The position numbers and the translations under genes were made by a program. The notes beneath the pieces were generated by a model. The model saw nothing but the letters and a program-made list of their open reading frames with translations, made no database searches and was not told where the DNA came from. Of a stretch of 57,289 nucleotides of DNA, positions 3,901-36,224 are shown piece by piece. Every line of letters starts with the position of its first letter. Position 1 is the first letter of the stretch. Location: positions 1 through 57,289 of the forward strand of contig CAVSPA010000011.1 of the NCBI GenBank assembly GCA_963729715.1, read 5' to 3'. Origin of the DNA: an uncultured delta proteobacterium. Lineage in GTDB: Bacteria; Desulfobacterota; Syntrophia; Syntrophales; UBA2185.

Positions 3901-4214
3901 ATTTCTTGCACATGGAAAGCAAACTTGACGGAACTCCCGGCCAATGATTTTTTAAATTATATCTGATTTTTCTCCAGAGACTCACTTCTTCAAAAAGTAA
4001 TATTCATTCAAGGCGGGGGACATATCCAATGCCAGGATAGCCCTCCACCCTCCTCCCGGTGACGATTCTTAGCTGTCTCCCACTACTCATGCCCATCAAG
4101 GAGCGCCACTAAATATTTCACGAGGTATACCGTGAAGATCAGAAAAGAAGGTTTCCTGTTCTGATGTTGACAGCGTCCTTGAAAAGTAGTATTCCCCCAA
4201 GCGGGGAGTTATGT

Positions 4215-5282
4215 ATGAAAGGTGGTATCTATTCGGACCAACGCTGTCCAGTTTGCGGTTCTGTCTTCGAAGATGATCATAAATCGTCCCTCGCCTGTCC
4301 TGATCATCCACAATGCCATGCCTCGAGGTTCAAGGTTCTCTTCGGAACAATCACGAAACGCACCAGGTCATACGATGCTGCCTTCCGCTTTCTCACAGGC
4401 CTCCGTTTTAAGACAGACGAGAGGACCTTTGACGAAAGGGATTATCGGCGTGACAATCCCCTTGGGTTTACGAACTTCTCCCGGAAGTATCTTCAATACC
4501 GACAAGGCGAGGTCCGGCCTGGCTCATACAGGAATATTCGCCGCCATATCCAGATTGCCCAGGAGTTCTTCAAACAAATGAACGTCAAGGATATCCGGTA
4601 TGGCCACCTCGAGGACCTTCTGCAATCTATCGAGCTATCCGATAAATCAAAGCATAACATCCTGTCAACAATTCATGCTTTCTTCGTATGGCTTCACCGT
4701 CGCCAGGAGATAAAGGAAATGCCGATATTCCCGACCGTAAGCTATGAGCTCGGGCGTAGGATGACCGTATCGAAGGACCGCCAGATGAAGATCCTCGAAG
4801 AAGTCAAGCGAATCGCACCGCTCAAGGTGTGGCTCGGCATTAAATTACTGTGCACCTACATCAGTATCCGTCCTGGTGAATTGATTAAATTGAAGGAAGG
4901 AGATATTGACATTGAAAACGGATATCTTTATTTCCCTCATCCCAAAGAGAAAAGGTTTAAGTCTGTTCCCATCTTGCCGGACGATATCGAGGCCCTTTCC
5001 AGCTTTCCAAGGAGTCTTCCATCTATGTCTTTTTTCCGACACGGCGGGGGCATATCAGGCGTGGCGGAAGGAGAATCATACGGCCTTAAATACTTTTACA
5101 AATGGTGGGTCAAGGCATGTGCAAATTTAGATATCGAGGGTGTTGACCTCTATGGCGGTACCCGCCACTCATCGGCCAGGGCAGCAAGAGCCTACCGCAC
5201 ACCGGAAGAAATAAAACGGGCCATGATGACGCGGACGAACAAGGCCTTTGAAAGATACTTTGAATCGAGGACCAGGACGTGA
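4215..5282 (+). CDS. Tyrosine recombinase/integrase with N-terminal Cys/His (Zn-ribbon-like) motif; probable frameshift at extreme C-terminus
   Basis: IRPGELIKL, PKE, LYGGTRHS and FERYF catalytic-type motifs; N-terminal CPVC...CPDH; GGGGAG RBS before ATG 4215. Confidence 0.85.
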   Translation: MKGGIYSDQRCPVCGSVFEDDHKSSLACPDHPQCHASRFKVLFGTITKRTRSYDAAFRFLTGLRFKTDERTFDERDYRRDNPLGFTNFSRKYLQYRQGEVRPGSYRNIRRHIQIAQEFFKQMNVKDIRYGHLEDLLQSIELSDKSKHNILSTIHAFFVWLHRRQEIKEMPIFPTVSYELGRRMTVSKDRQMKILEEVKRIAPLKVWLGIKLLCTYISIRPGELIKLKEGDIDIENGYLYFPHPKEKRFKSVPILPDDIEALSSFPRSLPSMSFFRHGGGISGVAEGESYGLKYFYKWWVKACANLDIEGVDLYGGTRHSSARAARAYRTPEEIKRAMMTRTNKAFERYFESRTRT

Positions 5283-5366
5283 GGGATATTTACCGCGATG
5301 TTGGTACGGTAATACGTCCTGACTGGCCACTGACAGGGAAAAATAAGCCGTAAGTTATTGAAATCA

Positions 5367-5720
5367 TGGTGGAGGCGGCGGGAATCGAACCCGCGTCCGA
5401 AAATATTCCACTGCAGCTTCTACATACTTGTCCTCTGTTTTAATCTCACTCTCGACAACTCCCGGAGGCAGGATTTATTGAGAGCCATCCCTTTTGGTTT
5501 TCGCCCTTTTCACTTCGGGAAAATGAAATCAGCTATCCTGCCTTTATGACGCCCTGATCTGATCCGACAGGCGGGATCAGTAAGACGTAGCCGTCTATGC
5601 GGCTAAAGCGTAATCGAAGTTCTTTGCGCTTAGATGTTTCCTACCTGTTTTACGAGGCCTGGTAGGAACCTCGGTATGCGACTACAGCTTCCATATCCCC
5701 GTCGAAACCTTTGCGCCCCC
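5367..5720 (-). ncRNA. ssrA: tmRNA
   Basis: 5' GGGGGCGCAAAGGTTTCGACGGGG; 3' GGTTCGATTCCCGCCGCCTCCACCA; tag frame AKNFDYALAA-stop at 5627-5595; lies downstream of smpB. Confidence 0.97.
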
Positions 5721-21288: not shown

Positions 21289-21519
21289 ATGTGCCTCGGA
21301 TTTCCCGGAAAAATAATTTCTATAGATGAAAATAAGCTCGCTATTATCGATATCAGCGGTACGCGTAGGGAAGCACGCCTTGACCTGGTAGATGACGATA
21401 CGGTCGTCGGTGACTATGTAATCTGCCACGCGGGTTATGCCATTCACAAGATAGATGAGGAACTGGCGCAGGAGATGCTGGATTGCCTGAGAGTGATCGT
21501 TGAAAGTGAATCAAATTGA
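21289..21519 (+). CDS. hypC: Hydrogenase maturation chaperone HypC
   Basis: MCLGFPGKI...VGDYVICHAGYAI. Confidence 0.93.
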   Translation: MCLGFPGKIISIDENKLAIIDISGTRREARLDLVDDDTVVGDYVICHAGYAIHKIDEELAQEMLDCLRVIVESESN

Positions 21520-21679: not shown

Positions 21680-22690
21680 ATGCAATATGATAAGATTCTG
21701 CTGGATCATGGCGGTGGCGGTTTATTGATGAATGAGCTGATTGCCCATACGTTCCTCCCCAAATTTAAGAATACATATCTCGAGCGTATGGAAGACGGCG
21801 CCGTCTTTGATATAGGCAATATTAAGCTCTGCTTCTCCACTGATTCTTATGTAGTGAGTCCTATTTTTTTCCCCGGCGGCGATATCGGTTCCCTGTCTGT
21901 ACACGGAACAGTCAATGACATTGCCGTGTGTGGAGGAATTCCCCTTTTTCTCAGCGCCGGATTCATTCTCGAAGAAGGTTTCGGCATGAATGATCTAGAA
22001 AAGATCATTGTATCCATGGCGCAGGCAGCATCGAACGCCGGTGTACAGATTGTTACAGGAGATACCAAGGTCGTGGCAAGGGGGGCAGCCGACGGAGTTT
22101 TCATCAATGTTTCCGGCATTGGCGTTATCAAGTATAAAGGGGTAATCTCTCCCCGAAGTGTGATGCCCGGAGATAAAGTGATCATTAATGGGACGATTGG
22201 AGATCATGGAGCAGCAATATTATGCAAGCGGCAGGACCTGGGCTTTAAGTCCGAGATTTTATCGGACTCGGCCCCGCTGAATACGCTCGTGGAAAGCATA
22301 CTCTCCACCAGTCCCAATATTCACTGCATGAGAGATGCAACAAGAGGCGGTCTCGGTGCAATCATGTGCGAAATTGCAGATCAGTCCGCATGCCAAATCG
22401 TAATCAACGAAATAAATATCCCGGTGCGGGAAGAGGTAAGGGGCGTGTGTGAGATTCTTGGCGTTGATCCGCTCTTTCTCGCCAATGAGGGAAAGATGGT
22501 AGTATTCTGCCCGCCCGAAGATACTGAGAAAGTCCTGCAGGTGATGGCGGCACACAAGTATGGCAGGGCCGCCGCCGTCATAGGAGAAGTGGGCGAAAAG
22601 GGCCGCGGACGTCTCCTGCTGAATACCGTCATCGGCGGGGCAAGGGAAATTGACCTGCCGACTGGTGAACTCGTTCCTCGCATCTGTTAA
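21680..22690 (+). CDS. hypE: Hydrogenase maturation protein HypE
   Basis: HGGGG, STDSYVVSPIFFPGGDIG, GDTKVV, MRDATRGG, ANEGK, C-terminal PRIC. Confidence 0.96.
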   Translation: MQYDKILLDHGGGGLLMNELIAHTFLPKFKNTYLERMEDGAVFDIGNIKLCFSTDSYVVSPIFFPGGDIGSLSVHGTVNDIAVCGGIPLFLSAGFILEEGFGMNDLEKIIVSMAQAASNAGVQIVTGDTKVVARGAADGVFINVSGIGVIKYKGVISPRSVMPGDKVIINGTIGDHGAAILCKRQDLGFKSEILSDSAPLNTLVESILSTSPNIHCMRDATRGGLGAIMCEIADQSACQIVINEINIPVREEVRGVCEILGVDPLFLANEGKMVVFCPPEDTEKVLQVMAAHKYGRAAAVIGEVGEKGRGRLLLNTVIGGAREIDLPTGELVPRIC

Positions 22691-22776: not shown

Positions 22777-23172
22777 TCAGTCTTTCGTTTTTTCCGTACC
22801 TTCCTTGGCTTTGTCCGCGCTTTCACGCAGATGCGACAAGCGCGTAGACTGATGCAACTCAACCGGCTTGTCATAGAGGGAGGGGCGCCATTTATAAATC
22901 AATTCTATGGCATCAGAGGGGCATGCCTGCACGCAGGCTTCACAGACTATGCACCTTAGCGGATAGAATGCAAGCTCATTTTTTGCCTTATCTGTTGTAA
23001 TGGCAACTGACGGACAGCGAAGGGCGCATACCCCGCACATAGTACACTTGTCGTCCAAGAATACTACGTGGCCCCGGGCGTTTTCAAAAGGCTCCCTTAT
23101 CTGAACCGGATACATCCGGGTGGCATATCCGGTGAACAGGTTTTTCAAAATGGTCGGTAACATGAAGGGCAT
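22777..23172 (-). CDS. echF: Ech hydrogenase 2[4Fe-4S] subunit (NuoI-like)
   Basis: ATRMYP...RG; CTMCGVCALRCP; CIVCEACVQACP; last gene of the operon. Confidence 0.88.
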   Translation of the reverse strand: MPFMLPTILKNLFTGYATRMYPVQIREPFENARGHVVFLDDKCTMCGVCALRCPSVAITTDKAKNELAFYPLRCIVCEACVQACPSDAIELIYKWRPSLYDKPVELHQSTRLSHLRESADKAKEGTEKTKD

Positions 23173-23195: not shown

Positions 23196-24278
23196 TTACC
23201 TCTCCATGCAGCAGATGCATGGATCAATAGAGAGAACAATCACCGGCACATCGGGCAATTGACTTCCGGGTAACATGACTAACAACGAGGGAAGATTGTT
23301 AAAGGTCGGCGTTCTGATTTTCATACGCTCCAGATTGCGCGTACCGTTTCCTTTTGCATAATAGAAGAGTTCTCCTCGCGGAGCTTCCGTACGCATGATC
23401 GCCTCATTGGCAGGGGGGTTGCCCTTTACTTTCGTTGCTATTTCGCCTTCGGGTAATTTATTCAGCGCTTCTATCTGCAAATCGATAGACTGGAGGAGTT
23501 CCCTCGCCCTCACCAGCGCGCGGGCATAACAGTCACCAGCAGTCTCTACTATGGGCTCGAAACTGAGCTCACCATAGGCATCGTACTTGGTCAAGCGAAC
23601 ATCTTCGCCGACTCCGCTCGCTCTCAGCACAGGGCCGACGCATCCTAACAGGAAGGCCTGCTCCTTTGTTACAACGCCGACACCGACCGTTCTGGACTTC
23701 ACTGTATAGTCATTGACCACGACCTTTATCAGGTCCTCGCTCTCCTTGCGGATTATGGGCAACGCCTCCAAGACCGTTTTTTTCTGTTCCTCATTTATAT
23801 CCCGCCGCACACCGCCGACTATATTGACTGAGGGGATGACTCTGTGCCCCGCTGTCATCTCTATGAGATCCAGAACCCGCTCCCGTATGCGCCAGAACTG
23901 GAGGAACATACTTTCAAAACCGAAGGCGTCCGCCAACAGCCCTAACCATAGAAGGTGGCTATGGGCGCGCGCCATCTCCGCCCAGATTGTACGCAGGTAT
24001 TTTATCCGGGGAGACAGTTCGACTGGCCACAACCTCTCCATCGCTTCGACCACAGACACGCTGTGGATGTAGCTGCAGATCCCTCAAACACGCTCACAGA
24101 GGTAAATATTCTTGGCGTATTCGTTAAGTTCACATGCTTTTTCTATTCCCCGATGGGCGTAGCCTATTACCGGAACCACTTCTACAACTGTTTCATCTTC
24201 ATAAGAGATTCTCAATTGTACAGGCTCGGGCAGTACCGGGTGTTGCGGCCCAAAGGGTACTGTTGTACGTGTAACCAT
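23196..24278 (-). CDS. echE: Ech (group 4) hydrogenase large subunit, 360 aa, with in-frame TGA at codon 65 (probable selenocysteine)
   Basis: The two track ORFs are in the same frame: PFGPQHP...GYAHRGIEK...ERV-TGA-GICSYIH...EAPRGEL...RTPT...DPCICCMER. There is no C-terminal extension. A SECIS-like hairpin follows the TGA. Confidence 0.9.
24040..24083 (-). promoter_or_regulatory. Candidate bacterial SECIS element
   Basis: After UGA: stem CCACAG/CUGUGG (+18 to +34) with loop CGUGU; possible lower pairings GCU/AGC and AUC/GAU. Confidence 0.7.
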
Positions 24279-24661
24279 TAACTATCTCCTTTCGCAGTAG
24301 TCGACGTAACCTTGTACGTTTTCAAAAGAGGCGTAACAGGACTATCCTGAGCCAAAAGCAAGTGTCCGCCGTAGTCAATGGCGAGATCCGTCACTTTTAA
24401 TCCGAACAATTCCTTCATTTCATTTTCAATAAGCACGGTGGCAAGGGTAACGCCGGAGAAACTCGGGACCGCTTCATCTTTTGTCACCTTATAACGCAGA
24501 CCGTGCATAACCGTCCCGGCGTCATGGCTGAAGAAGTACGTCACCTCCAGATGTTGGTCAAGGTCGCTGCAGACAGCCGTCACGAATTTTCCGCCTGCAT
24601 CCAAAAATTTCCTGCCTTCCGTTAATAACTCTTCTTTCTTAATCTCCCTTATATTTTCCAT
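24278..24661 (-). CDS. echD: Ech hydrogenase subunit D (NuoC-like)
   Basis: VPSFSGVTLATVLIENEMKELFGLKV; lies between echC and echE. Confidence 0.85.
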   Translation of the reverse strand: MENIREIKKEELLTEGRKFLDAGGKFVTAVCSDLDQHLEVTYFFSHDAGTVMHGLRYKVTKDEAVPSFSGVTLATVLIENEMKELFGLKVTDLAIDYGGHLLLAQDSPVTPLLKTYKVTSTTAKGDS

Positions 24662-24672
24662 TCCCTACTTCC

Positions 24673-25095
24673 TCAGAGTTTCGATAGCTTTTGCAGGGCC
24701 ATTACGACGCCGTCTATGATGGCCTCCGGACGCACGGAGCAGCCGGGAACATATACGTCAACCGGAATAACCTTGTCTACACCGCCCAGAACATTATAAC
24801 AATTGTGAAATACACCGCCGGTAGAGGCGCATGTTCCAACACAGACGACCACTTTAGGGTCGGGAACCTGCTCATACAGATTCTTCAAGACCCGGGCAGT
24901 GCGCCTGTTAACGGGCCCCGTAATAAGAAGTATGTCAGCATGTTTCGGATTTCCCATATTAACCATACCGAATCGTTCTACATCATAAAGAGGAGTCAGA
25001 CAGGCGAGTATCTCTATGTCACAGCCATTGCAGGAACTGTTATCAAAGTGTAGAATCCATGGCGACTTAACGCGAGACCTTTGTATCAATCCCAT
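24673..25095 (-). CDS. echC: Ech hydrogenase small subunit (NuoB-like)
   Basis: SPW...SCNGCDIE...DVERFG...NPKHADIL...GTCASTGG...YVPGC. Confidence 0.93.
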   Translation of the reverse strand: MGLIQRSRVKSPWILHFDNSSCNGCDIEILACLTPLYDVERFGMVNMGNPKHADILLITGPVNRRTARVLKNLYEQVPDPKVVVCVGTCASTGGVFHNCYNVLGGVDKVIPVDVYVPGCSVRPEAIIDGVVMALQKLSKL

Positions 25096-25100
25096 AGTTC

Positions 25101-25967
25101 TTAAGATACCCCCTTAGTGTAATAGATATAGGCTATATTGATTATTCCCAGGATCAATCCCACTGACCAGCTCAGGCGTACCATCCAGCCGACAGTCATT
25201 CTCGCAGTAATATTGTCAATGAAGAGCTCCAGTAAGAATGCAGCCGAAGCAATCAAGATTCCCACCCATAGCGGGTTCGTCCAAAAGAGAGAGATGATCC
25301 CGAGAAGCAGGATGATCTCGTACCACTCCGCCAGATGATAGAGGGCCAAATAAGGACCTGAGTATTCGGTAGTCACCCCTTTCACAATCTCCTGATGGCC
25401 GTGGTGACATGTCGAAATGTCAAACGGCGATTTGCGCATCTTTATAGTTAATACATAAAGAACTGCGAGGAACAACGGCCAGAGCGTGAAGAGCAAAGGT
25501 TTATCCTGTCTGAAAATCTCACTGATGAGAAAGCTTCCGTTCTGGGCGTAAATCGCGATCGCCAGAAGAAGCAGCACGGGTTCATACGCCAGAATCTGCA
25601 TCAGCTCCCGGTTCGCGCCGAAATGGGCATATGGAGATTTCGTGCTGAAGCCGCCCAAAACCAGGCAGACGCCGGCAAACCCGAGGAGAAACACGAGGAG
25701 GAGAAAATCCGATTTCATGACGAGAAAAATCAGACTCGCTATCATAAAGACCAGGTATCCGTAGATCCAGACGAATTGCAACCTGCTTACGGCAATACGT
25801 TCTTTCCCCAAGAGCTTAATGAAATCATAAAATGGCTGAATGATGGGAGGACCATACCGACCCTGCATGCGCGCCGTTATCCTGCGGTCTATGCCGAAAA
25901 GCAAACCGCCGACAATGGGAGCACCTACCAAAATTAAAAGGACAAAAAGGAACTGTTTAATCATCAT
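25101..25967 (-). CDS. echB: Ech hydrogenase membrane subunit B (NuoH-like)
   Basis: GIDRRITARMQGRYGPPIIQPFYDFIKL; KSPFDIS..HQEIVKG.TTEYSG; ATGA overlap with the echA stop. Confidence 0.92.
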   Translation of the reverse strand: MMIKQFLFVLLILVGAPIVGGLLFGIDRRITARMQGRYGPPIIQPFYDFIKLLGKERIAVSRLQFVWIYGYLVFMIASLIFLVMKSDFLLLVFLLGFAGVCLVLGGFSTKSPYAHFGANRELMQILAYEPVLLLLAIAIYAQNGSFLISEIFRQDKPLLFTLWPLFLAVLYVLTIKMRKSPFDISTCHHGHQEIVKGVTTEYSGPYLALYHLAEWYEIILLLGIISLFWTNPLWVGILIASAAFLLELFIDNITARMTVGWMVRLSWSVGLILGIINIAYIYYTKGVS

Positions 25968-27919
25968 ATAGCGATCACCCCGCATCCGAGCATAATGACC
26001 AAGAGTAAGATGGCTATTGCGTTTGCCCAGGGATTCACCCTTTCTTCGCCCAACGTACTCCGGTAATAATAGCCACCCAGTTGGAATTTAGTTTTGCGAT
26101 CCGCTTCAGCCAGCCATTCATCAGTATCAGTACCGCCGGTCTGCTCGCCGCACATGTAAACCGGCCTCAGCTCCTTAGGCTTCACCCCGATCAGCATGAG
26201 CGGCAGGAGCAAGGCAACAATCAGAATCAGGTAGAGGGGCCACACGGGGAAAAAGCCCAAAATTTCCCTCTGCATAAAAGAGGGCGTTATCAGTATTAGG
26301 TTGTTCAGACCGAGGGCGATGACCTGATTCCCGGAAACGACGTCGTTCGTCGCAGCACGAAGGAAATTCTGATAAATCGGACCGATCCCCATACCGACGA
26401 CGAATATGCCGATCAGCAAAGTCCACAAGGGAACAGAATAGCTCAGTGATAATTTTTCAAAAGGCCTCTCTATCTTCGGCAGAACCTGCAGCAGCCGCCC
26501 GAGCCATTTTGTCCAGAAAACTATCGTCAGGGTACTCGCGAGGGCGAAAAAGACTGCCGCGAGTGGAACCATGTAGGCGGCTTCCAGGGCGATCCATTTA
26601 CCGAGGAGCATGCCGAAGGGTGGAAGGAACATGGATAGTATGCCTACTCCCGTAATAAGTGTGGTGAGAGGAGCCTTGGCGGCAAGGCCTTCCATGTCTT
26701 CGATATCGCGGCTCCAGATCTGATGCTCAATCGTACCGGCGCAGAGAAAGAGCAGTCCTTTCGATATGGCGTGGAAAATGATGAGCAGAATTGCTGCGGC
26801 GATGGAAAGGGGCGTATTAATCCCCGCGCACGCAATGATCAAACCGAGGTTGGCGATTGTGGAGTATGCCAAGACCCTCTTCCCAGTGGACTGGCTCACT
26901 GCCAGCGCGGACGCGGCAAAGAAAGTGAACGCTCCGGCAATGGCAATGATGACACTCAAATATGTCCCCGCATAAACAGGGGCAAGCCTGAGAACAAGGT
27001 AGACCCCTGCTTTGACCATCGTACTGGAATGCAGCAAGGCTGATACGGGCGTAGGCGCCACCATTGCTCCCAAAAGCCAGCTCTGAAATGGCATCTGGGC
27101 TGCCTTGGTAAAACCGGTATAGCAGAGGAGCGCGATCGGCAGCACGGCAAGAGAAGACTGAATGCCTCCTCCTATAATGCTCTGCATGGAAAGGGCGGAT
27201 GAAGCTCCCTGCGTGGCGTAAAGATAAATTATGGCCAGAATAAAGGCAGTTCCTCCCGTGGAATTCATCCATACGGCACGCGCCGCGTTGTGTATAGCCT
27301 CTTTCGTTCTATCGTGCGAGATCAGCTGGAAGCTACATAATGTGGTCACTTCCCAGAAGAAGTAAAGCCAGACTAAATTATTCGCAAACACAAGGCCGTT
27401 CATGGCGCCCAAAAACAGAACGAGCCAGAAAAGGAATCTCGGCTGTCTGGATTTCTCAATCCCGGCATGGTGCTCATGGTCATACATGTATCGCAGGGCA
27501 AAAATACAGATGAGTGACCCTATGATGGAAATGACCATGGTCATGACAAGGGCCAAATGATCAATGACAAAAGCAGGCGCCACTTCAATATGGGCCTTCA
27601 TGACGAACTCAAAGTATGCAAGCGGGAGAATCTGCGTGAGGGCGAAGATGAGAACCAGCCAGTTCCGCAACGATATGCCCACGTAAAGATAAAAGATAAG
27701 AATAGCATAGTCCAGGATTGTGATAAGTAAGCCCCAGTCAAACCCGCCTGGTGTATATGTGAAGGGTCCTCTTATAGAGAGCAGGATACTGTTAGCAATT
27801 AAAACTATCGCGGTTGCAATAACAATGACGTTTCGCGCATAGTAATTGCGGACAGCCAGTACGAGAAATCCTGCCGCAACAGGTAGCAAGATGGCGATTG
27901 CCATCATTTGATCAGCCAA
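25964..27919 (-). CDS. echA: Ech hydrogenase antiporter-like subunit A (NuoL/MrpA-like)
   Basis: FWEVTTLCSF; KAAQMPFQSWLLGAMVAPTPVSALLHSSTMVKAGVY; LAYSTIANLG; FHAISKGLLFL. Confidence 0.92.
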   Translation of the reverse strand: MADQMMAIAILLPVAAGFLVLAVRNYYARNVIVIATAIVLIANSILLSIRGPFTYTPGGFDWGLLITILDYAILIFYLYVGISLRNWLVLIFALTQILPLAYFEFVMKAHIEVAPAFVIDHLALVMTMVISIIGSLICIFALRYMYDHEHHAGIEKSRQPRFLFWLVLFLGAMNGLVFANNLVWLYFFWEVTTLCSFQLISHDRTKEAIHNAARAVWMNSTGGTAFILAIIYLYATQGASSALSMQSIIGGGIQSSLAVLPIALLCYTGFTKAAQMPFQSWLLGAMVAPTPVSALLHSSTMVKAGVYLVLRLAPVYAGTYLSVIIAIAGAFTFFAASALAVSQSTGKRVLAYSTIANLGLIIACAGINTPLSIAAAILLIIFHAISKGLLFLCAGTIEHQIWSRDIEDMEGLAAKAPLTTLITGVGILSMFLPPFGMLLGKWIALEAAYMVPLAAVFFALASTLTIVFWTKWLGRLLQVLPKIERPFEKLSLSYSVPLWTLLIGIFVVGMGIGPIYQNFLRAATNDVVSGNQVIALGLNNLILITPSFMQREILGFFPVWPLYLILIVALLLPLMLIGVKPKELRPVYMCGEQTGGTDTDEWLAEADRKTKFQLGGYYYRSTLGEERVNPWANAIAILLLVIMLGCGVIAI

Positions 27920-28497: not shown

Positions 28498-28971
28498 ATG
28501 AAGGAGGCCTATTCTAATCAAATGACAAGAGAACTACAGGATGTACTTGGGAGCTTTGCCAAGAGCCGCGACAACCTCATCCCTATTCTTCAGGCGGTGC
28601 AGGGCGAGTACGGGTATCTCACCCCGGAATCCATGGAAGGCATTGCAGACTACCTCTGCATTTCTGAAAGTAGCCTTTACGGAGTGGCTACTTTCTACAC
28701 CCAGTTCAAGTTCTCCAGACCGGGTGATCACAACGTGAGAGTATGCCTTGGCACAGCCTGCCATGTGAGAGGCGGATCGCGCATAATGGACGAGGTAAGC
28801 CGCCACCTGCATATACGGGCAGGTGAGACTACGGAGAATTATAAGTTCAGCCTGGAGCGTGTTGCCTGCTTCGGATCCTGCGCGCTCTCGCCGGTGGTGG
28901 TTGTGGATAAGAAGGTATATGGCAGAATGAACCCCAAAAAGATAAAGAATATATTAAAGGAATACGAATGA
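28498..28971 (+). CDS. NuoE/HydC-like [2Fe-2S] subunit
   Basis: LIPILQAVQ, GVATFYTQF, VCLGTACHVRG, VACFGSCALSP. Confidence 0.92.
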   Translation: MKEAYSNQMTRELQDVLGSFAKSRDNLIPILQAVQGEYGYLTPESMEGIADYLCISESSLYGVATFYTQFKFSRPGDHNVRVCLGTACHVRGGSRIMDEVSRHLHIRAGETTENYKFSLERVACFGSCALSPVVVVDKKVYGRMNPKKIKNILKEYE

Positions 28972-31900
28972 ATTTCGAAGCCATCAAGAAAAAAGCCCAG
29001 CAGGAATGGGAAGCTTTCAACACGTTTGATAAACCGCGAATCCTCGTGGGAGCCGCAACATGCGGCCGCGCGGCCGGAGCTCTGGAAGTCTGGGAAAAAT
29101 TCAAAAAGGAACTGGCCAGCCGGTCTCTTGAGGCAAACATCGTGCAAGTCGGAGACCTCGGCCTCTGTTATGCTGAGCCGTGCATCGAGATCGCCGTTCC
29201 GGACGGACGCCGCGTTCTTTACGGATCGGTGACTGAAGAGACGGTTCCGAAACTCATCGAGGACTTCATCCTGAAAGGAAATCCCAGGCCGGATCTCGCG
29301 CTTTGCACCTTCGGTCAGAAAAGAATCGAAGGCGTCCCCACCTTTGAAGAGCTGCCCATGGCGAGTAAACAGGTCCGCGTAGTCCTCAGGAACAGCGGCA
29401 TCATCGACCCCTCCAATATCTATCACTACATCGCAAGAGGCGGCTACTCCGGCCTCAATAAGGCCCTACAAATAGGGCCCGAAAAGGTCATCGAGGAGAT
29501 CAGGAACTCCGGCCTCCGCGGTAGGGGAGGAGCCGGATTCCCGACAGGGGTGAAGTGGGAACTGGCAAGAGGGAACAAAAGCGACGTCAAGTACATGATC
29601 TGCAACGCAGACGAGGGAGACCCCGGCGCATTCATGGATCGGGCCGCCCTCGAGAGCGACCCCCATGCGGTTCTCGAGGGCCTCGCCATCGGCGCGTATG
29701 CGATCGGCGCAAGCTACGCTATTGTATATGCCCGGGCCGAGTATCCTCTGGCGATAGAGCGTATCGAAGGGGCGATCCGACAGATGGAAGAGTACGGCTT
29801 CCTTGGGAAGAATATCCTCGGGTCCGGTTTTGACCTGACCGTCAAGATCAAGGAAGGCGCGGGCGCTTTTGTATGCGGTGAAGAGACGGCGCTCATGGCG
29901 TCCATTGAGGGACAGCGAGGGATGCCCAAACCCAGGCCCCCGTTCCCCGCTCAGGCCGGTCTGCATGGCCAGCCGACCAACATCAACAACGTGGAGACCC
30001 TGGCGAATGTGTCGGAGATCATGAACAGGGGCGCAGCCTGGTTCTCCTCCTACGGCACGGAAAAGAGCAAGGGGACGAAGACATTTGCCCTCGCCGGAAA
30101 GATCAATCGCACCGGCCTCATAGAAGTTCCCATGGGCATCAAACTCGGGGACATTATCTTCGATATCGGCGGCGGCATCCTGGAAGACAAACAGTTCAAG
30201 GCCGTTCAGACCGGTGGACCTTCCGGCGGCTGCATCCCTGTGAAGTACCTCGACATGCCTGTGGACTATGAAGAGCTGGCAAAGGTGGGCTCCATCATGG
30301 GTTCCGGCGGAATGATCGTCATGGATGAAGACTCCTGCATGGTGGACATCACGCGGTACTTCCTCAGTTTCACGGAGAAAGAATCATGCGGCAAGTGCAC
30401 CCCCTGCAGGATGGGGACGCAGCACCTGCTCCATATCTTGACGGAGATCACGCAGGGAAGAGGCAAGCTTGAGTATCTGACCCTTCTTGAAAAAATAGGC
30501 ATGACGTTGAAGAACACGTCCCTGTGCGCTCTGGGACAGACGGTTCCGAATCCGATCCTCAGCACTCTCCGCTATTTCAGGGAAGAATATGTGGAACATA
30601 TTGTCGACAAGAAATGCAGAGCCGTCGTATGTGCGGCGCTCTTCAAGTCGCCGTGCCAGCACACGTGTCCCGCCGGAATGGACGTGCCCAAGTATATTGC
30701 CCTCATCCGGGCGGAACGCTTCGGTGACGCGTATAAGATCATGTTGAAAACAAACCCCTTCCCTTCCGTTTGCGGAAGGGTGTGCGACCATAAATGCCAG
30801 GCAAAATGCCGCAGGGGCAATCTCGACGAACCGCTCGCCATCAAATTCCTAAAGAGGTTCATCACCGACAATGCACCCAGGCCACAGACGGCCCTGGTGC
30901 CAGTCACCAGAAAGGAAAAGATTGCCGTGATCGGCGCGGGTCCCGCGGGGCTGACGGCGGCGCGCGACCTAGCCATCAGAGGATATAAAGTGACTGTGTT
31001 TGAAGAACTCTCCGAACCCGGCGGAATGCTCCGCTGGGCTATCCCCGCTTACAGACTCCCGAGGAAGATCCTGGCCGATGAGATCAACGACAACATAAAA
31101 TCCCTCGGCGTGGAAATTAAATGCAATACGCGCGTAGGCAAAGACATCTCCCTTGAGCAAGTAAGCAAGAATTTCGATTATATCTTCATGGCTCCTGGAG
31201 CTCATAAGAGCCAGCCGATGGGCGTCGAGGGAGAAAATCTTAAAAGTGTCTACGGCGGCGTCGAATTTCTAAGAGACTTCCATACCGATGAAAAGGCTTG
31301 GTTAAGCGGCAAAAAGACACTCGGCTCAAAAGTAGCCGTTATCGGTGGCGGCAATTCCGCCATTGATGCCGCCCGCGTGGCTCAGCGGCTCGGCGCTGAT
31401 GTGACCATTCTATACAGACGTGAGAAGAAGGATATGCCCGCGGCGGAAGAAGAACTTCTTGCTGCTGAAGACGAAGGGATCAAGATTAAATTTCTTGTTA
31501 TCCCTCTGAATATCTCCGGAAAAGACGGCAAGGTAAGCGCCATTACCTGTCAGCGAACGAGACTGACTGAATTTGACAGGAGCGGACGTAGGAGGCCGGT
31601 AGCAATCGAGAAATCTGAATTCACTCTGAATATAGACACCGTTATTGCGGCCATCGGGCAAGTGTCTGATATGACCTTCGTGCCTGCGGAAAGCGGCGTG
31701 AGCGTCAACAAGTGGTCGACCTTCGACCTCGCAGACGGAAGTAAGTCCCAGACGTCGAATCCGAAGTTTTTCACCGGCGGCGATGCCCTGACAGGACCGG
31801 ATACGGTGATCGGTGCTATCGCTCAAGGACACCAGGCGGCGCGGGACATGGACGCGTATATCAGGAAGATCAACAACGAACCGGCATACGTGGAACCTAG

Positions 31901-32087
31901 GGATGAATTTATCGACGTGCCGCTGGTCATCGATGAAGACTCCGAAGAGGAGCCGCAGGCGCGGATGCCTGAGCTGCACGTTGGCGACAGGAAGAAGAAC
32001 TTCAAAGAAGTCGAACTTGGCTACGAGAAGAAGATCGCCGTCCTGGAGGCGTGCCGCTGCCTCAGGTGCGATGCGGAAATTGTTTAG
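28968..32087 (+). CDS. NuoF/HydB-like FMN-NADH subunit fused to a GltD-like FAD/NAD(P)H oxidoreductase
   Basis: GLRGRGGAGFPTG, CNADEGDPGA, FVCGEETAL, SCGKCTPCR. From about 30650: PCQHTCP, CGRVCDHKCQAKC, IGAGPAGL, GGGNSAID, EACRCLRC. Confidence 0.9.
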   Translation: MNFEAIKKKAQQEWEAFNTFDKPRILVGAATCGRAAGALEVWEKFKKELASRSLEANIVQVGDLGLCYAEPCIEIAVPDGRRVLYGSVTEETVPKLIEDFILKGNPRPDLALCTFGQKRIEGVPTFEELPMASKQVRVVLRNSGIIDPSNIYHYIARGGYSGLNKALQIGPEKVIEEIRNSGLRGRGGAGFPTGVKWELARGNKSDVKYMICNADEGDPGAFMDRAALESDPHAVLEGLAIGAYAIGASYAIVYARAEYPLAIERIEGAIRQMEEYGFLGKNILGSGFDLTVKIKEGAGAFVCGEETALMASIEGQRGMPKPRPPFPAQAGLHGQPTNINNVETLANVSEIMNRGAAWFSSYGTEKSKGTKTFALAGKINRTGLIEVPMGIKLGDIIFDIGGGILEDKQFKAVQTGGPSGGCIPVKYLDMPVDYEELAKVGSIMGSGGMIVMDEDSCMVDITRYFLSFTEKESCGKCTPCRMGTQHLLHILTEITQGRGKLEYLTLLEKIGMTLKNTSLCALGQTVPNPILSTLRYFREEYVEHIVDKKCRAVVCAALFKSPCQHTCPAGMDVPKYIALIRAERFGDAYKIMLKTNPFPSVCGRVCDHKCQAKCRRGNLDEPLAIKFLKRFITDNAPRPQTALVPVTRKEKIAVIGAGPAGLTAARDLAIRGYKVTVFEELSEPGGMLRWAIPAYRLPRKILADEINDNIKSLGVEIKCNTRVGKDISLEQVSKNFDYIFMAPGAHKSQPMGVEGENLKSVYGGVEFLRDFHTDEKAWLSGKKTLGSKVAVIGGGNSAIDAARVAQRLGADVTILYRREKKDMPAAEEELLAAEDEGIKIKFLVIPLNISGKDGKVSAITCQRTRLTEFDRSGRRRPVAIEKSEFTLNIDTVIAAIGQVSDMTFVPAESGVSVNKWSTFDLADGSKSQTSNPKFFTGGDALTGPDTVIGAIAQGHQAARDMDAYIRKINNEPAYVEPRDEFIDVPLVIDEDSEEEPQARMPELHVGDRKKNFKEVELGYEKKIAVLEACRCLRCDAEIV

Positions 32088-32200
32088 TGGGAGGGATCTC
32101 ATCTGACGGGAAGAATTCTCCCACACTTTGCTTACCACGCCCATGGTAACGGGAAAATAACGGGCGGCAGAACGCCTATAAAGCAGGAGAAAATTTGAGA

Positions 32201-34699
32201 ATGAGTGAAATAACCCTTACGATTAACGGGAATCTGGTTAAAGCGGAACAAGGAGACACGGTCCTTACGGCAGCGCGGAAGGCCGGGATCGAAGTCCCCA
32301 CTCTCTGCGACCACCCGGCGCTGGAGCCCTACGGCGCCTGCCGGCTCTGTATAGTCGAGATTGAAGGCATGAGGGGATACCCGCCATCCTGCACCACGCC
32401 TGCCGCTCAAGGCATGGTGGTCAAGACATCTTCCCCGGTCATCATCGATCTCCGCAAGGAAGTTATCAAGCTCTTGCTGAGCGGTCATACCAGCCCGTGC
32501 CTCGTCTGCCTCCATCGCGAGCCATGCGAAAAGTACCGGCCCCGCCCGTTCAAGAGCGGCAGAGCGACGCGATGCGCTTTCTGCAGCAACCGTGACCAGT
32601 GTGAACTTCGGAAACTTACCGAGGAATACAAGATTGACGATCTGGAAGTGCCCATCATCTACAAGCATCTGCCTGTCGAACACATGGACCCTTTCATGGA
32701 CAGGGATTATAACCTGTGTGTTCTTTGCGGACGATGCGCCCGGATATGCGAAAAGATCCATACCACCGGGACCATTGCTTTCGTGGAGCGCGGCAAAGAA
32801 GCCCGGATTTCAACGGCCTTTGACCAGCCGCATGCCAAGACCGACTGCCGTTTCTGCGGCGCGTGCGTAGACATCTGTCCTACGGGTGCGATGAGCGACC
32901 GGTATGCCAAGTGGTACGGCGCACCGGACAGTGTCGTGGATTCCACCTGCATACTCTGCCCTGTGGGCTGCTCGGTTCGCCTTAAGACCAAGGACGGAAA
33001 AGTGATCAGCTCCGGGATGACGGCCTTCACGCGGGACGCCCGCATCTGCGCCGTGGGCCGGTTTGTGTTACCCCAGCTTCTCGACAGCCGTTACAGACTC
33101 ACGTCACACCAGATACGTGTGGCCGATGGTCTTATCAAGACCGGCTATGAGGATGCCCTTGATCTCGCGGCAAGTAGTCTCAAGGCATATTCCGGCGGTC
33201 AGTTTGCCATGATCGCCCCCTCTTCGGCAACGCGTGAAGAACTCTACGTACTCCGGAAATTCACGAAAGATGTGATGAAATCGGATAATTTTATAGTGGA
33301 GCCGGCCTCTGTTCCGGATGCAGTAGCCAACGGAAGCGTCAAGGCGCTTTATGCTCTCGGTGATTACCTCCAAAGTACGAGACCCAAAGGACTCGACGTC
33401 CTGATCGTCTCCGACATGTTCCCGTCGAGGACAGAGAAATCCGCGGACGTCATTTTTGCTGTGGCCGGGCTTGTGGAAACCGACGGCACTTTCCTCAATG
33501 CTTCGGGTCAGATCAAGACTATGGCTGCTCAAGCCAAGGCGCCGACGGCCCTGCTGCCTGACTGGAAGGTCGTGTGCGATACAGCCAAGAAAATGGGCGC
33601 AAGTGGATTTGATTTTCAAGCATCCGAAGACATAGCCGAGGAAATGACGACCTCAAAGGGCAAGAAGATTCCACCCGTCGCTCCGGAGCCGTCCCCGCTC
33701 GACAAAGTGTCTGCTATCCCCCGGATGTACAGAGGCCATGCGATGAGCGACATAGTAACCGCCATGCGCATCTTCTTTACCGCTCAAGAAAAGGAAGAAA
33801 AGAAAGCTGCTCCCGTTCCCGTGGAAGAAGGAAAACGTTTCCGGATCTTGGAAAAAATCGAGATCGTACCGAACACGCACATGGTGACGGTTCATGCCCC
33901 GGTGATTGCAGAAAAGTGTCAGCCGGGTCAATTTGTGATCGCCATGGTGGAGGAGACCTCCGAGCGTATCCCCTACACAATATCAGACTTCGACCGTGAA
34001 AAAGGAACAATTACCATGGTGACCCTCGAAATGGGACGCTCAAGCCGGGAACTTGCGAACACTACTGCGGGCGAATATCTCGCCCATTTTGCAGGTCCCC
34101 TGGGGCGTCCGGTAGAAGTGAAAAAATTCGGGACGGTCCTCCTGGGCGGCGGCTGTTTTGGTGTGGGAGCCATTCTGCCTATCGCCAGGGTAATGAAAGA
34201 AGCCGGAAACAGGGTGATCTGTATTGAAGAGGCATCGAGCCACTACCTGCTCCACTGGCAGGATAGACTCTCTGCCGCCTGCGATGAACTGGTCGTCGTC
34301 ACCAAGGACGGCTCCGCAGGCATTAAGGGCGGCGTACAGGAAGCGATCTCCATGCTCGTGGATCGGGGAGAGAAGATTGACCAGGCATACATCGTAGGCT
34401 GTACCTTCATGATGATGCTTGTCTGTGACGTGACCAGGAAACTGGGCATACCGACCATGACAGCGATGAACCCTCTGATGGTGGATGGGACAGGCATGTG
34501 CGGCTGCTGCCGCGTGAGTGTGGGAGGGGTTACGAAGTTCTCTTGCGTAGACGGACCGTTCCTCGATGGGCTGCAAATCGACTGGATCGAGTTAATGCAG
34601 AGGCAGGCGGCCTTCAAGCTGGAAGAAGTGCAAGCGATACCGCAGGAACCGCGTCCTGTGCACGACCATGGAGGAGACCATGTGTGCATGCGTGCGTGA
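32201..34699 (+). CDS. NuoG/FdhA-like Fe-S subunit (truncated molybdopterin fold) fused to an NfnA-like FAD/[2Fe-2S] domain
   Basis: PTLC, GACRLC, CTTP, CVLCGRCARIC, CRFCGACVDICP, CILCPVGC...C. From about 33839: QPGQFVI, ERIPYTI, GPLGRP, MVDGTGMCGCCR, CVDGP. Confidence 0.88.
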   Translation: MSEITLTINGNLVKAEQGDTVLTAARKAGIEVPTLCDHPALEPYGACRLCIVEIEGMRGYPPSCTTPAAQGMVVKTSSPVIIDLRKEVIKLLLSGHTSPCLVCLHREPCEKYRPRPFKSGRATRCAFCSNRDQCELRKLTEEYKIDDLEVPIIYKHLPVEHMDPFMDRDYNLCVLCGRCARICEKIHTTGTIAFVERGKEARISTAFDQPHAKTDCRFCGACVDICPTGAMSDRYAKWYGAPDSVVDSTCILCPVGCSVRLKTKDGKVISSGMTAFTRDARICAVGRFVLPQLLDSRYRLTSHQIRVADGLIKTGYEDALDLAASSLKAYSGGQFAMIAPSSATREELYVLRKFTKDVMKSDNFIVEPASVPDAVANGSVKALYALGDYLQSTRPKGLDVLIVSDMFPSRTEKSADVIFAVAGLVETDGTFLNASGQIKTMAAQAKAPTALLPDWKVVCDTAKKMGASGFDFQASEDIAEEMTTSKGKKIPPVAPEPSPLDKVSAIPRMYRGHAMSDIVTAMRIFFTAQEKEEKKAAPVPVEEGKRFRILEKIEIVPNTHMVTVHAPVIAEKCQPGQFVIAMVEETSERIPYTISDFDREKGTITMVTLEMGRSSRELANTTAGEYLAHFAGPLGRPVEVKKFGTVLLGGGCFGVGAILPIARVMKEAGNRVICIEEASSHYLLHWQDRLSAACDELVVVTKDGSAGIKGGVQEAISMLVDRGEKIDQAYIVGCTFMMMLVCDVTRKLGIPTMTAMNPLMVDGTGMCGCCRVSVGGVTKFSCVDGPFLDGLQIDWIELMQRQAAFKLEEVQAIPQEPRPVHDHGGDHVCMRA

Positions 34700-34760
34700 T
34701 CCCGCCATTATTTGCTATTGAACTTGTTATTCTTGGATTAACCTGAGATTGGAAAAAAAT

Positions 34761-36224
34761 ATGGAACCAAAAGAGAAAGAAAAAAAGCCGAAGGTCCCCA
34801 GGCAGAAAATGCCGGAGCAGGACCCGAGACGACGAAGGAGCAACTTCGAAGAAGTGCCTTACGGTTACACAGAGGAGCTTGCGCTGGCAGAGGCCAGCCG
34901 TTGCCTCAAATGCAAGAAGCCTCTCTGTATTACAGGTTGTCCGGTAAATATCCGGATACCGGATTTCATCAAGCTTATCGAAGAAGGCAAATTCATCGAA
35001 GCGGCTTGGAAGCTAAAGGAGCAAAATACCCTGCCTGCCGTGACGGGCCGCGTCTGCCCACAGGAGACGCAATGCGAGATCCTATGCATCCTGGGAAAGA
35101 AAGGCGATCCCGTGGCAATCGGACGCCTGGAGCGATTTGCAGCAGACTATGAGAGAAAATTCGGAACAGCTCAACTGCCGGAGTTGCCTTCACCTACGGG
35201 AAAGAAGGTTGCCATCATCGGCGCCGGACCTGCAGGCCTCACCGTGGCGGGAGATCTCGTGATGCTCGGGCACAAGGTCACCATTTTTGAAGCTCTCCAG
35301 GTGACCGGAGGTGTACTTGTGTACGGCATCCCCGAATTCCGTCTTCCTAAAGCAATCGTGAAATACGAGGTTGATTACCTGAGAAGGCTCGGAGTCGAAA
35401 TCCTCACGGATTATGTTGTGGGCAAGGCCCGGACAGTGGAAGAGCTCTTCAAAGAAGGCTTTGATGCCATCTTCATCGGCACGGGTGCAGGACTTCCCAT
35501 GTTTATGGACATACCGGGTGAAAATTTTGTTGGCGTCTACTCTGCAAACGAGTATCTTACAAGATCCAATCTCATGAAATCTTTCCGATTTCCTGAGTAC
35601 GGGACAGCACCCATCCGGAGCAAAAAGGTCATTACCGTAGGAGGTGGAAACGTCGCCATGGATTCGGCGCGGACTGCCTTGAGGCTCGGAGCGGAGTCCA
35701 TTATTGTGTATAGGCGCAGCCGTGATGAAATGCCCGCTCGTGCAGAAGAGATCCACCATGCCGAGGAAGAAGGCGTCCAGCTTATGATTCTGACAAACCC
35801 TGTGCGTGTAATCGGCGACGAACAAGGGAGGGTGAAAGCCGTTGAGTGTATCAAAATGGAGCTTGGCGAACCGGATGCGTCGGGAAGAAAAAGACCGATC
35901 CCCGTCAAGGGAAGCGAATTCATCATCGAATGCGATACGGTAATTCCAGCGCTCGGCAACAAGCCCAATCCGCTCATTGCCATGACGACACCCGGGCTTA
36001 AGACGACCCGCTGGGGCACGTTGGAAGCGGATCCCGACACTATGGAAACGTCCATGAAGGGCGTATTTGCCGGAGGCGACATCGTCACCGGTGCAGCGAC
36101 CGTCATTTCGGCCATGGGCGCCGGGAAAAAAGCCGCTGCCAGCATGCATGAATACCTGATGACAGGAAAAGTGACAAAGCCTGTGAAGGAAGAAAAAGAG
36201 GGAGCGAAAGAAAAGAAGGAATAA
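34761..36224 (+). CDS. nfnB: NfnB/SudA-like (GltD-family) NADPH-binding large subunit
   Basis: EASRCLKCKKPLCITGCPV, GRVCPQETQCE, YGIPEFRLPK, SANEYLTR, GGGNVAMD, GGDIVTGAATVI; directly follows the NfnA domain. Confidence 0.85.
   Translation: MEPKEKEKKPKVPRQKMPEQDPRRRRSNFEEVPYGYTEELALAEASRCLKCKKPLCITGCPVNIRIPDFIKLIEEGKFIEAAWKLKEQNTLPAVTGRVCPQETQCEILCILGKKGDPVAIGRLERFAADYERKFGTAQLPELPSPTGKKVAIIGAGPAGLTVAGDLVMLGHKVTIFEALQVTGGVLVYGIPEFRLPKAIVKYEVDYLRRLGVEILTDYVVGKARTVEELFKEGFDAIFIGTGAGLPMFMDIPGENFVGVYSANEYLTRSNLMKSFRFPEYGTAPIRSKKVITVGGGNVAMDSARTALRLGAESIIVYRRSRDEMPARAEEIHHAEEEGVQLMILTNPVRVIGDEQGRVKAVECIKMELGEPDASGRKRPIPVKGSEFIIECDTVIPALGNKPNPLIAMTTPGLKTTRWGTLEADPDTMETSMKGVFAGGDIVTGAATVISAMGAGKKAAASMHEYLMTGKVTKPVKEEKEGAKEKKE

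Follow-up and report, generated by a model that had tools for sequence, protein, structure and literature searches.

In-frame UGA at the first L1 nickel ligand of a Syntrophales Ech hydrogenase large subunit and its probable reading as selenocysteine

The window, that is the whole stretch of 57,289 nucleotides analysed here, carries an ech operon in which the gene of the catalytic large subunit, echE, contains a TGA codon in frame. The sequence evidence suggests, with a probability of about 0.9, that this UGA (codon 65) is read as selenocysteine (Sec) and that the operon encodes an intact six-subunit Ech complex whose large subunit is a selenoprotein. An earlier sequence-only reading of this DNA had proposed Sec at the terminal L1 ligand of an Ech-type hydrogenase, and the conserved TGA, the operon and the sel genes described below lend support to this proposal. 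The concept is already in print for this clade; the gene itself is real, well supported and biochemically interesting.

The echE frame and the ech operon

The echE gene is located on the minus strand of the window (24278-23196) and forms a single frame of 360 codons followed by TAA, in which the TGA at codon 65 (24084..24086, minus strand) is the sole internal stop. Translation thus agrees with the earlier description of a 360-codon frame broken only by TGA, and the 64-aa and 287-aa open reading frames are its two halves. Read-through gives a product of 360 aa, the catalytic subunit of a [NiFe(Se)] hydrogenase of group 4e. The TGA lies within ERV*GICSYIH, and alignment to two structural references, the P. 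furiosus MBH (6cfw_L) and E. coli HycE (7z0s_E), places codon 65 at the first Cys of RxCGxC, as had been claimed. This residue is the first L1 ligand (C1), terminal to Ni, and a Sec in this position would give a UxxC motif. The translated frame end also confirmed the all-Cys L2 motif DPCICCMER (23199..23225, minus strand), in which C354 and C357 are the ligands and an extra Cys356 and Met358 replace the usual Ser and Thr. The gene therefore has the UXXC arrangement, with UGA at C1 and Cys at C2, C3 and C4, and possesses both Ni-binding motifs of a NuoD-like large subunit, L1 only if UGA is read through. The protein ends at the L2 Arg, and a C-terminal extension is absent. The AlphaFold model of EchE based on a 62-sequence alignment (pLDDT 84) was most similar to HycE and MbhL (TM 0.86 and 0.84, respectively), with residues 9-22, 36-39 and 356-360 weakly modelled; the single-sequence prediction was poor (pLDDT 45). 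Among the matches listed, the nearest named ones were titled 'ech hydrogenase subunit E', and the nearest named relatives (92-97%) belonged to records titled Syntrophales, Syntrophaceae or uncultured delta proteobacterium.

The operon echA-B-C-D-E-F is uninterrupted (27919-22777), consists of two membrane and four soluble subunits, and its order matches that of relatives. The five other ech genes, described earlier as intact, have open frames and match the expected families. They are all encoded on the minus strand and comprise echA (25964..27919), a Mrp/NuoL-like antiporter subunit of 651 aa, echB (25101..25985, with the start at 25985 or 25964), a NuoH-like membrane subunit, echC (24673..25095), the NuoB-like small subunit with a [4Fe-4S] cluster, echD (24278..24661), a NuoC-like subunit whose stop overlaps the echE start, and echF (22777..23172), a 2x[4Fe-4S] ferredoxin-like subunit. 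The maturation genes hypC (21289..21519, plus strand; a chaperone, TIGR00074) and hypE (21680..22690, plus strand) are intact as well, both scoring above the NCBIfam cut-offs; both are convergent with the ech operon, and hypE adjoins Sec-type copies in relatives. The hypB, hypD and hypF genes are located elsewhere in the genome of the window (G000). A promoter scan stayed at chance level (10 found vs 10 expected).

A divergent cluster of four genes is present on the plus strand (28498-36224). It encodes a NuoE-like protein, a NuoF-GltD/NfnB-like fusion (1039 aa), a fusion of a NuoG N-terminus, a Mo-domain remnant and an NfnA-like part (834 aa), and an NfnB-like protein (491 aa). The cluster adjoins seven Sec-type ech loci with high identity, and none of the Cys-type loci examined. 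Judging by its domains, it looks like a Bfu/Stn-type module joined to an Nfn-type bifurcating one, which could be a supplier or acceptor of reduced ferredoxin. Elsewhere in the window (4164-5720), an integrase-like ORF (4164-5282) adjoins the tmRNA gene (5367-5720), which suggests an element integrated at ssrA.

Conservation of the TGA and its decoding

Genomes and metagenomes provided 140 loci, equal to 111 distinct CDS, of which those with an identity of at least 70% were kept as the set of relatives. The expected alternation of TGA and Cys at codon 65 was found among them: TGA was present in 41 distinct CDS, the window's own included, none of which contained any other stop, and Cys-type CDS made up the other form; the TGA-bearing sequences are kin, and their counts are not independent events. 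Within the family, TGA-type echE occurred in 15 of 22 genomes, and in all 11 genomes of the genus, G000 among them. A Cys paralog (81-82%) accompanied the TGA gene in two of these 15 genomes (G006 and G019), and in the other 13 the TGA-type copy was the only close EchE. Two TGA-type copies, on separate contigs, were found in each of the genomes G001 and G004, reflecting duplication or strain mixture. In the family of G042 further copies were not found (2/17 genomes).

A stop codon in frame at a catalytic residue might be regarded as the mark of a pseudogene, or as a sequencing or assembly error, the more so as databases contain fragments only and the contamination of the G000 assembly amounts to 6.5%. 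However, the identical lone TGA, with no second lesion, is shared by lineages that are 14-16% diverged in protein, and in 13 of 15 genomes the gene is the sole close EchE. The region 3' of the TGA (codons 80-360) is under strong purifying selection, with a median dN/dS of 0.048 and a maximum of 0.061 for 38 Sec-clade pairs, which share ancestry and have high dS. Moreover, contigs assembled from runs X1 and X2 (assemblies, not raw reads, possibly of the source sample) cross codon 65 with 0 differences. A decayed or misread gene is therefore very improbable. The prediction that annotation pipelines would miscall the gene proved accurate: 59 of the 120 protein matches listed were N-truncated fragments of 263-288 aa, and the DPCICCMER end was found in 58 of these 59 and in 0 of the 61 full-length matches. 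Gene callers evidently cut this clade at the TGA, because the DPCICCMER proteins occur as N-truncated fragments and never at full length among the matches listed. Inventories of hydrogen metabolism that include wetland Syntrophales consequently undercount this Ech, since public protein sets contain fragments without L1 whereas all 11 genomes searched in the genus have the gene.

Downstream of the UGA, a SECIS-type core hairpin is located at 24050..24066 (minus strand; positions +21 to +37 when counted from the U of the UGA), with a 6-bp stem and a 5-nt loop; a weaker lower stem reaches about 24043-24073. SECIS-like hairpins were defined by a G in one of the first two loop positions, and here it occupies the second (24059). 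The same hairpin appears in the bSECISearch column of a published table (PMC13582414). All 40 Sec-type CDS preserve the six pairs; of the 28 Cys-clade CDS none does, and five keep five pairs. Codons 71-76 showed zero synonymous differences in 39 Sec CDS, vs 0.40 gene-wide, the lowest value among 355 windows of codons along the gene; in the Cys clade the value for the same codons was 0.31. Out of 773 other TGAs of G000 that passed filtering, 173 also satisfy a similar hairpin rule (22% background), and shuffled versions of the 77-nt segment fold equally well (z -0.18). Therefore, the hairpin by itself is weak evidence, and it is the constraint that carries the evidence. Minimum free energy folding of 60-77 nt did not return the SECIS, and longer segments favour another fold. 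A genome-wide use of the hairpin rule for defining the selenoproteome was dropped as unspecific (173/773).

The same constraint bears on the idea of a truly split enzyme, composed of a 64-aa N-terminal peptide and a re-initiated C-terminal chain of 281-287 aa. GTG and ATG codons are available at positions 74-80 and are used by gene callers, but such re-initiation would lose residues 65-73 together with both L1 ligands, yet GICSYIH is conserved in frame in 41 CDS and the codons directly 3' of the TGA are under SECIS-type constraint. We consider a functional two-chain product scarcely credible.

The machinery for Sec insertion was searched for in G000, as the earlier reading had advised, and selA, selB, selC and selD were all found above cut-off; selD carries a TGA itself, and the tRNA-Sec has a UCA anticodon and a G discriminator. 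In the family, selA was present in 22 of 22 genomes and tRNA-Sec in 19 of 22, including 14 of the 15 TGA carriers. Because selA is also present in the seven genomes without the TGA gene, the co-occurrence of sel genes permits the Sec reading and does not discriminate in its favour. Other likely selenoprotein TGAs of G000 are located on contig C5 (443529, 187086 and 733661), contig C4 (566549 and 484705) and contig C10 (59753). We take these to represent a DsbA/FrnE-like UxxC, an HdrA-like CxxU, a CPTU, two identical CDPU motifs and an acylphosphatase-like match.

The UGA might instead be recoded as Cys, by a tRNA-ReC system (selC*/CysRS*) or by sulfur misloading on tRNA-Sec, in which case the Ech would be all-Cys sometimes or always. 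This limit is named in PMC13582414 for genomes with tRNA-ReC, and G000 has two extra cysS-like genes besides the ordinary cysS: a CysK-CysS fusion of 769 aa (C7:56123-58432) and a 405-aa form without the C-terminal part of the model, which has no tRNA nearby (C3:136266-137483). Nevertheless, a UCA-anticodon Cys tRNA (tRNA-ReC, with U73 and UCA/GCA) was not found in the G000 assembly by Rfam, default ARAGORN or blastn. Rfam gave one tRNA-Sec match above cut-off, with the G discriminator, default ARAGORN returned one tRNA-Cys and one tRNA-Sec, blastn with both tRNAs found no second copy, and a single selB was above cut-off. Moreover, the four UXXC genomes listed in PMC13582414 have tRNA-Sec only, as far as its table indicates. 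Low-stringency ARAGORN produced many UCA/GCA candidates, which were treated as noise. Decoding as Cys is thus improbable, and insertion of Sec remains the preferred reading of codon 65. Among the tRNAs of G000, a 73-nt one called Ser(GCT) (C16:17367-17439) is without the long variable arm, and a second tRNA-Val(CAC) is present on the same contig; these tRNAs possibly come from a mobile element or contamination.

Relation to known hydrogenases and the role of selenium

A group 4e UXXC clade was described in silico by Takano, Inoue, Aono, Ochi and Mihara (Front Microbiol, Sept 2026; PMC13582414). Among 47 group 4 Sec variants, they list four UXXC sequences, all of them group 4e Syntrophales of the family UBA2185, and their main text offers no protein-level demonstration. 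Three of the four sequences are L057, L059 and L060 of our set, which Table 1 of that paper classes as 4e and which are 92, 87 and 86% identical to the window protein, respectively; the 59-nt SECIS region of the fourth equals that of the window. By inspection, the window sequence itself is absent from the four rows. The likeness extends to the UXXC-CXXC motifs, the six-gene Ech operon, the SECIS G, which belongs to a GUG codon for Val, and the presence of paralogous Sec and Cys forms that are about 81% identical. A quick tree placed the window gene (L020) together with the three published loci L057, L059 and L060 in a Sec clade of 39 members (SH-aLRT 98). Given the three shared loci and the shared SECIS region, the window gene is a further member of the described clade. 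The earlier suggestion of an uncharacterised type does not hold as a claim of a new type, which was already defined in silico in PMC13582414; it stands with respect to biochemistry, as an experimental study of the UXXC group 4e type was not found in the literature searched, which mostly excluded subscription papers. A term search of the available text of a May 2026 selenoproteome review returned no mention of 'Ech' or 'NADH-quinone'. The present analysis adds to PMC13582414 about ten times more sequences, a second phylum (L065), a likely reversion and an L2 change that goes with Sec. The DPCICCMER motif is visible in the published sequences and is not discussed in the main text of that paper.

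The known Ech enzymes (EchABCDEF, group 4e) of Methanosarcina, Thermacetogenium phaeum and Desulfovibrio have six subunits in the same A-F order and likewise a large subunit of about 360 aa that ends at the L2 Arg; EchE of T. phaeum (P0017) is 74% identical to that of the window. They differ from it in having Cys instead of UGA/Sec at C1, and CISC instead of CICC in L2. The canonical [NiFeSe] hydrogenases (group 1a HysAB of Desulfovibrio/Desulfomicrobium and group 3 Vhu/Fru of Methanococcus) also use one UGA-coded terminal Sec, but theirs is located at C3 (L2 UxxC), near the proton-gate Glu, and the enzymes are not ion-pumping, whereas the Sec of the window protein would be at C1. Its all-Cys L2 lacks the canonical DPUxxC, and it scores far below the cut-offs of NF045518, NF033181 and NF041785. 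A canonical [NiFeSe] gene was not found in G000, whose other three NiFe large subunits have Cys in L2.

According to the established bacterial pathway, SelB bound to the hairpin (+21 to +37) would bring Sec-tRNA(Sec) to UGA65. In the mature enzyme, Ni would be coordinated by the terminal Se of U65 and the terminal S of C354, with the S of C68 and C357 in bridging positions. By analogy to its family, the complex would work in either direction, with ion translocation by EchA/B coupled to H+/H2 conversion and to reduced ferredoxin, the latter through EchF and EchC. Because the Cys sisters share the same operon, Sec is expected to mean tuning and not a new reaction. The selenium may tune the Ni site, resist irreversible oxidation of the terminal ligand, which yields sulfinate in other hydrogenases, and free the C354 sulfur for the proton path, a proposal to which we give roughly even odds. 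The invariant Glu18 presumably takes part in the proton path together with this sulfur.

C1 is described as a non-bridging ligand (PMC13582414; PMC8020662). In a [NiFeSe] enzyme the C1-equivalent Cys75 was reported as oxidised, with sulfinate at non-Sec ligands (PMC7324405), and since C1 is the ligand for which oxidation is reported, protection from oxidation is the lead idea. The engineered E. coli Hyd-1 variant C76U (Evans et al., 2021; PMC8020662) carries Sec at the same C1, matures and is active. Unlike the window enzyme, it is a group 1d hydrogenase not adapted to Se, and it is slower, with 3% of the native activity, and more O2-sensitive, keeping 5% of the current on O2 exposure and being the variant most affected by transient O2. 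Simple protection from O2 is therefore disfavoured, as Sec at this very position made Hyd-1 more O2-sensitive (PMC8020662). Wherever the cited papers name a natural [NiFeSe] hydrogenase that has been studied biochemically, its Se is at the other terminal position. An energy-converting hydrogenase with a natural Se at C1, kept under selection, would make it possible to test why this position is usually sulfur, the engineered version being worse. The natural pair L065/L064 and the genomes G006 and G019, which have both forms, would allow a direct comparison of Sec and Cys.

The L2 change and the ancestry of Sec

In Syntrophales, Sec is accompanied by Cys356 instead of Ser and Met358 instead of Thr in L2. 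Over the whole set, CICCMER was present in 38 of 39 full TGA copies, and CISCTER in 29 of 29 Cys copies. Accordingly, the 68 CDS spanning both motifs comprised 38 with TGA and DPCICCMER, 29 with Cys and DPCISCTER, and one with TGA and DPCISCTER. A Bacillota copy (L065, Firmicutes bacterium UBA4795), found together with selA and tRNA-Sec, has TGA and an identical hairpin core and retains Ser356. CICCMER is also found in a truncated protein of the Bacillota group (P0100), in favour of a link with Sec, and in the all-Cys enzymes of Acetothermia, against it. Because L065 is without this motif and the all-Cys Acetothermia enzymes have it, CICCMER may be a mere lineage marker. The association with Sec is further weakened by the shared descent of a single clade and by the poor modelling of residues 356-360.

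The name and contig prefix of L065 are absent from Table 1 of PMC13582414. Its sister L064 (92% identity in DNA, about 94% in protein) has TGT at codon 65 and an intact hairpin, whereas the Cys rows of that table all deviate from the exact hairpin core. L064 looks like a recent Sec-to-Cys reversion; it is possible that its hairpin is pre-adapted instead of a relic. The 90% protein cluster of L064 and L065 holds six full-length Cys forms and three truncated forms.

In motif-masked trees, the Bacillota group was placed outside a clade uniting the Desulfobacterota Sec and Cys groups (support 94/98, 100/99 and 97). With this topology Sec would be the original state, from which the large Cys clade reverted. 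The AU test rejected a single Sec clade when the outgroups were distant (p 0.01; 32 rows out of 78) but not when they were close (p 0.123; 33 rows, quick tree); the latter test left out the fragment P0109, whose sequence equals that of a Cys-type gene. A possible transfer of a TGA and SECIS patch into Bacillota gave no distinct signal in sliding DNA identity, codons 61-80 (+0.10) being unremarkable when compared with, e.g., codons 161-180. A broader reading may be formulated, in which Sec at C1 was ancestral to Bacillota and Desulfobacterota, reverted to Cys repeatedly, and in Syntrophales became part of a reversible, protective Se-S or S-S switch at the nickel site, formed with Cys356 of L2 as a fifth, non-canonical Cys; an ion-pumping hydrogenase would then possess a chemically distinct [NiFeSe] site. 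It is consistent with the SECIS core kept by L064 and the decayed one kept by the Syntrophobacteraceae-rich Cys clade, but taken as a whole we hold it to be unlikely. Apart from these enzymes, a distant group 4 large subunit (41%; L037, G031:C66) was observed in which both L1 Cys codons are TGA (UxxU), a type placed in group 4b in PMC13582414.
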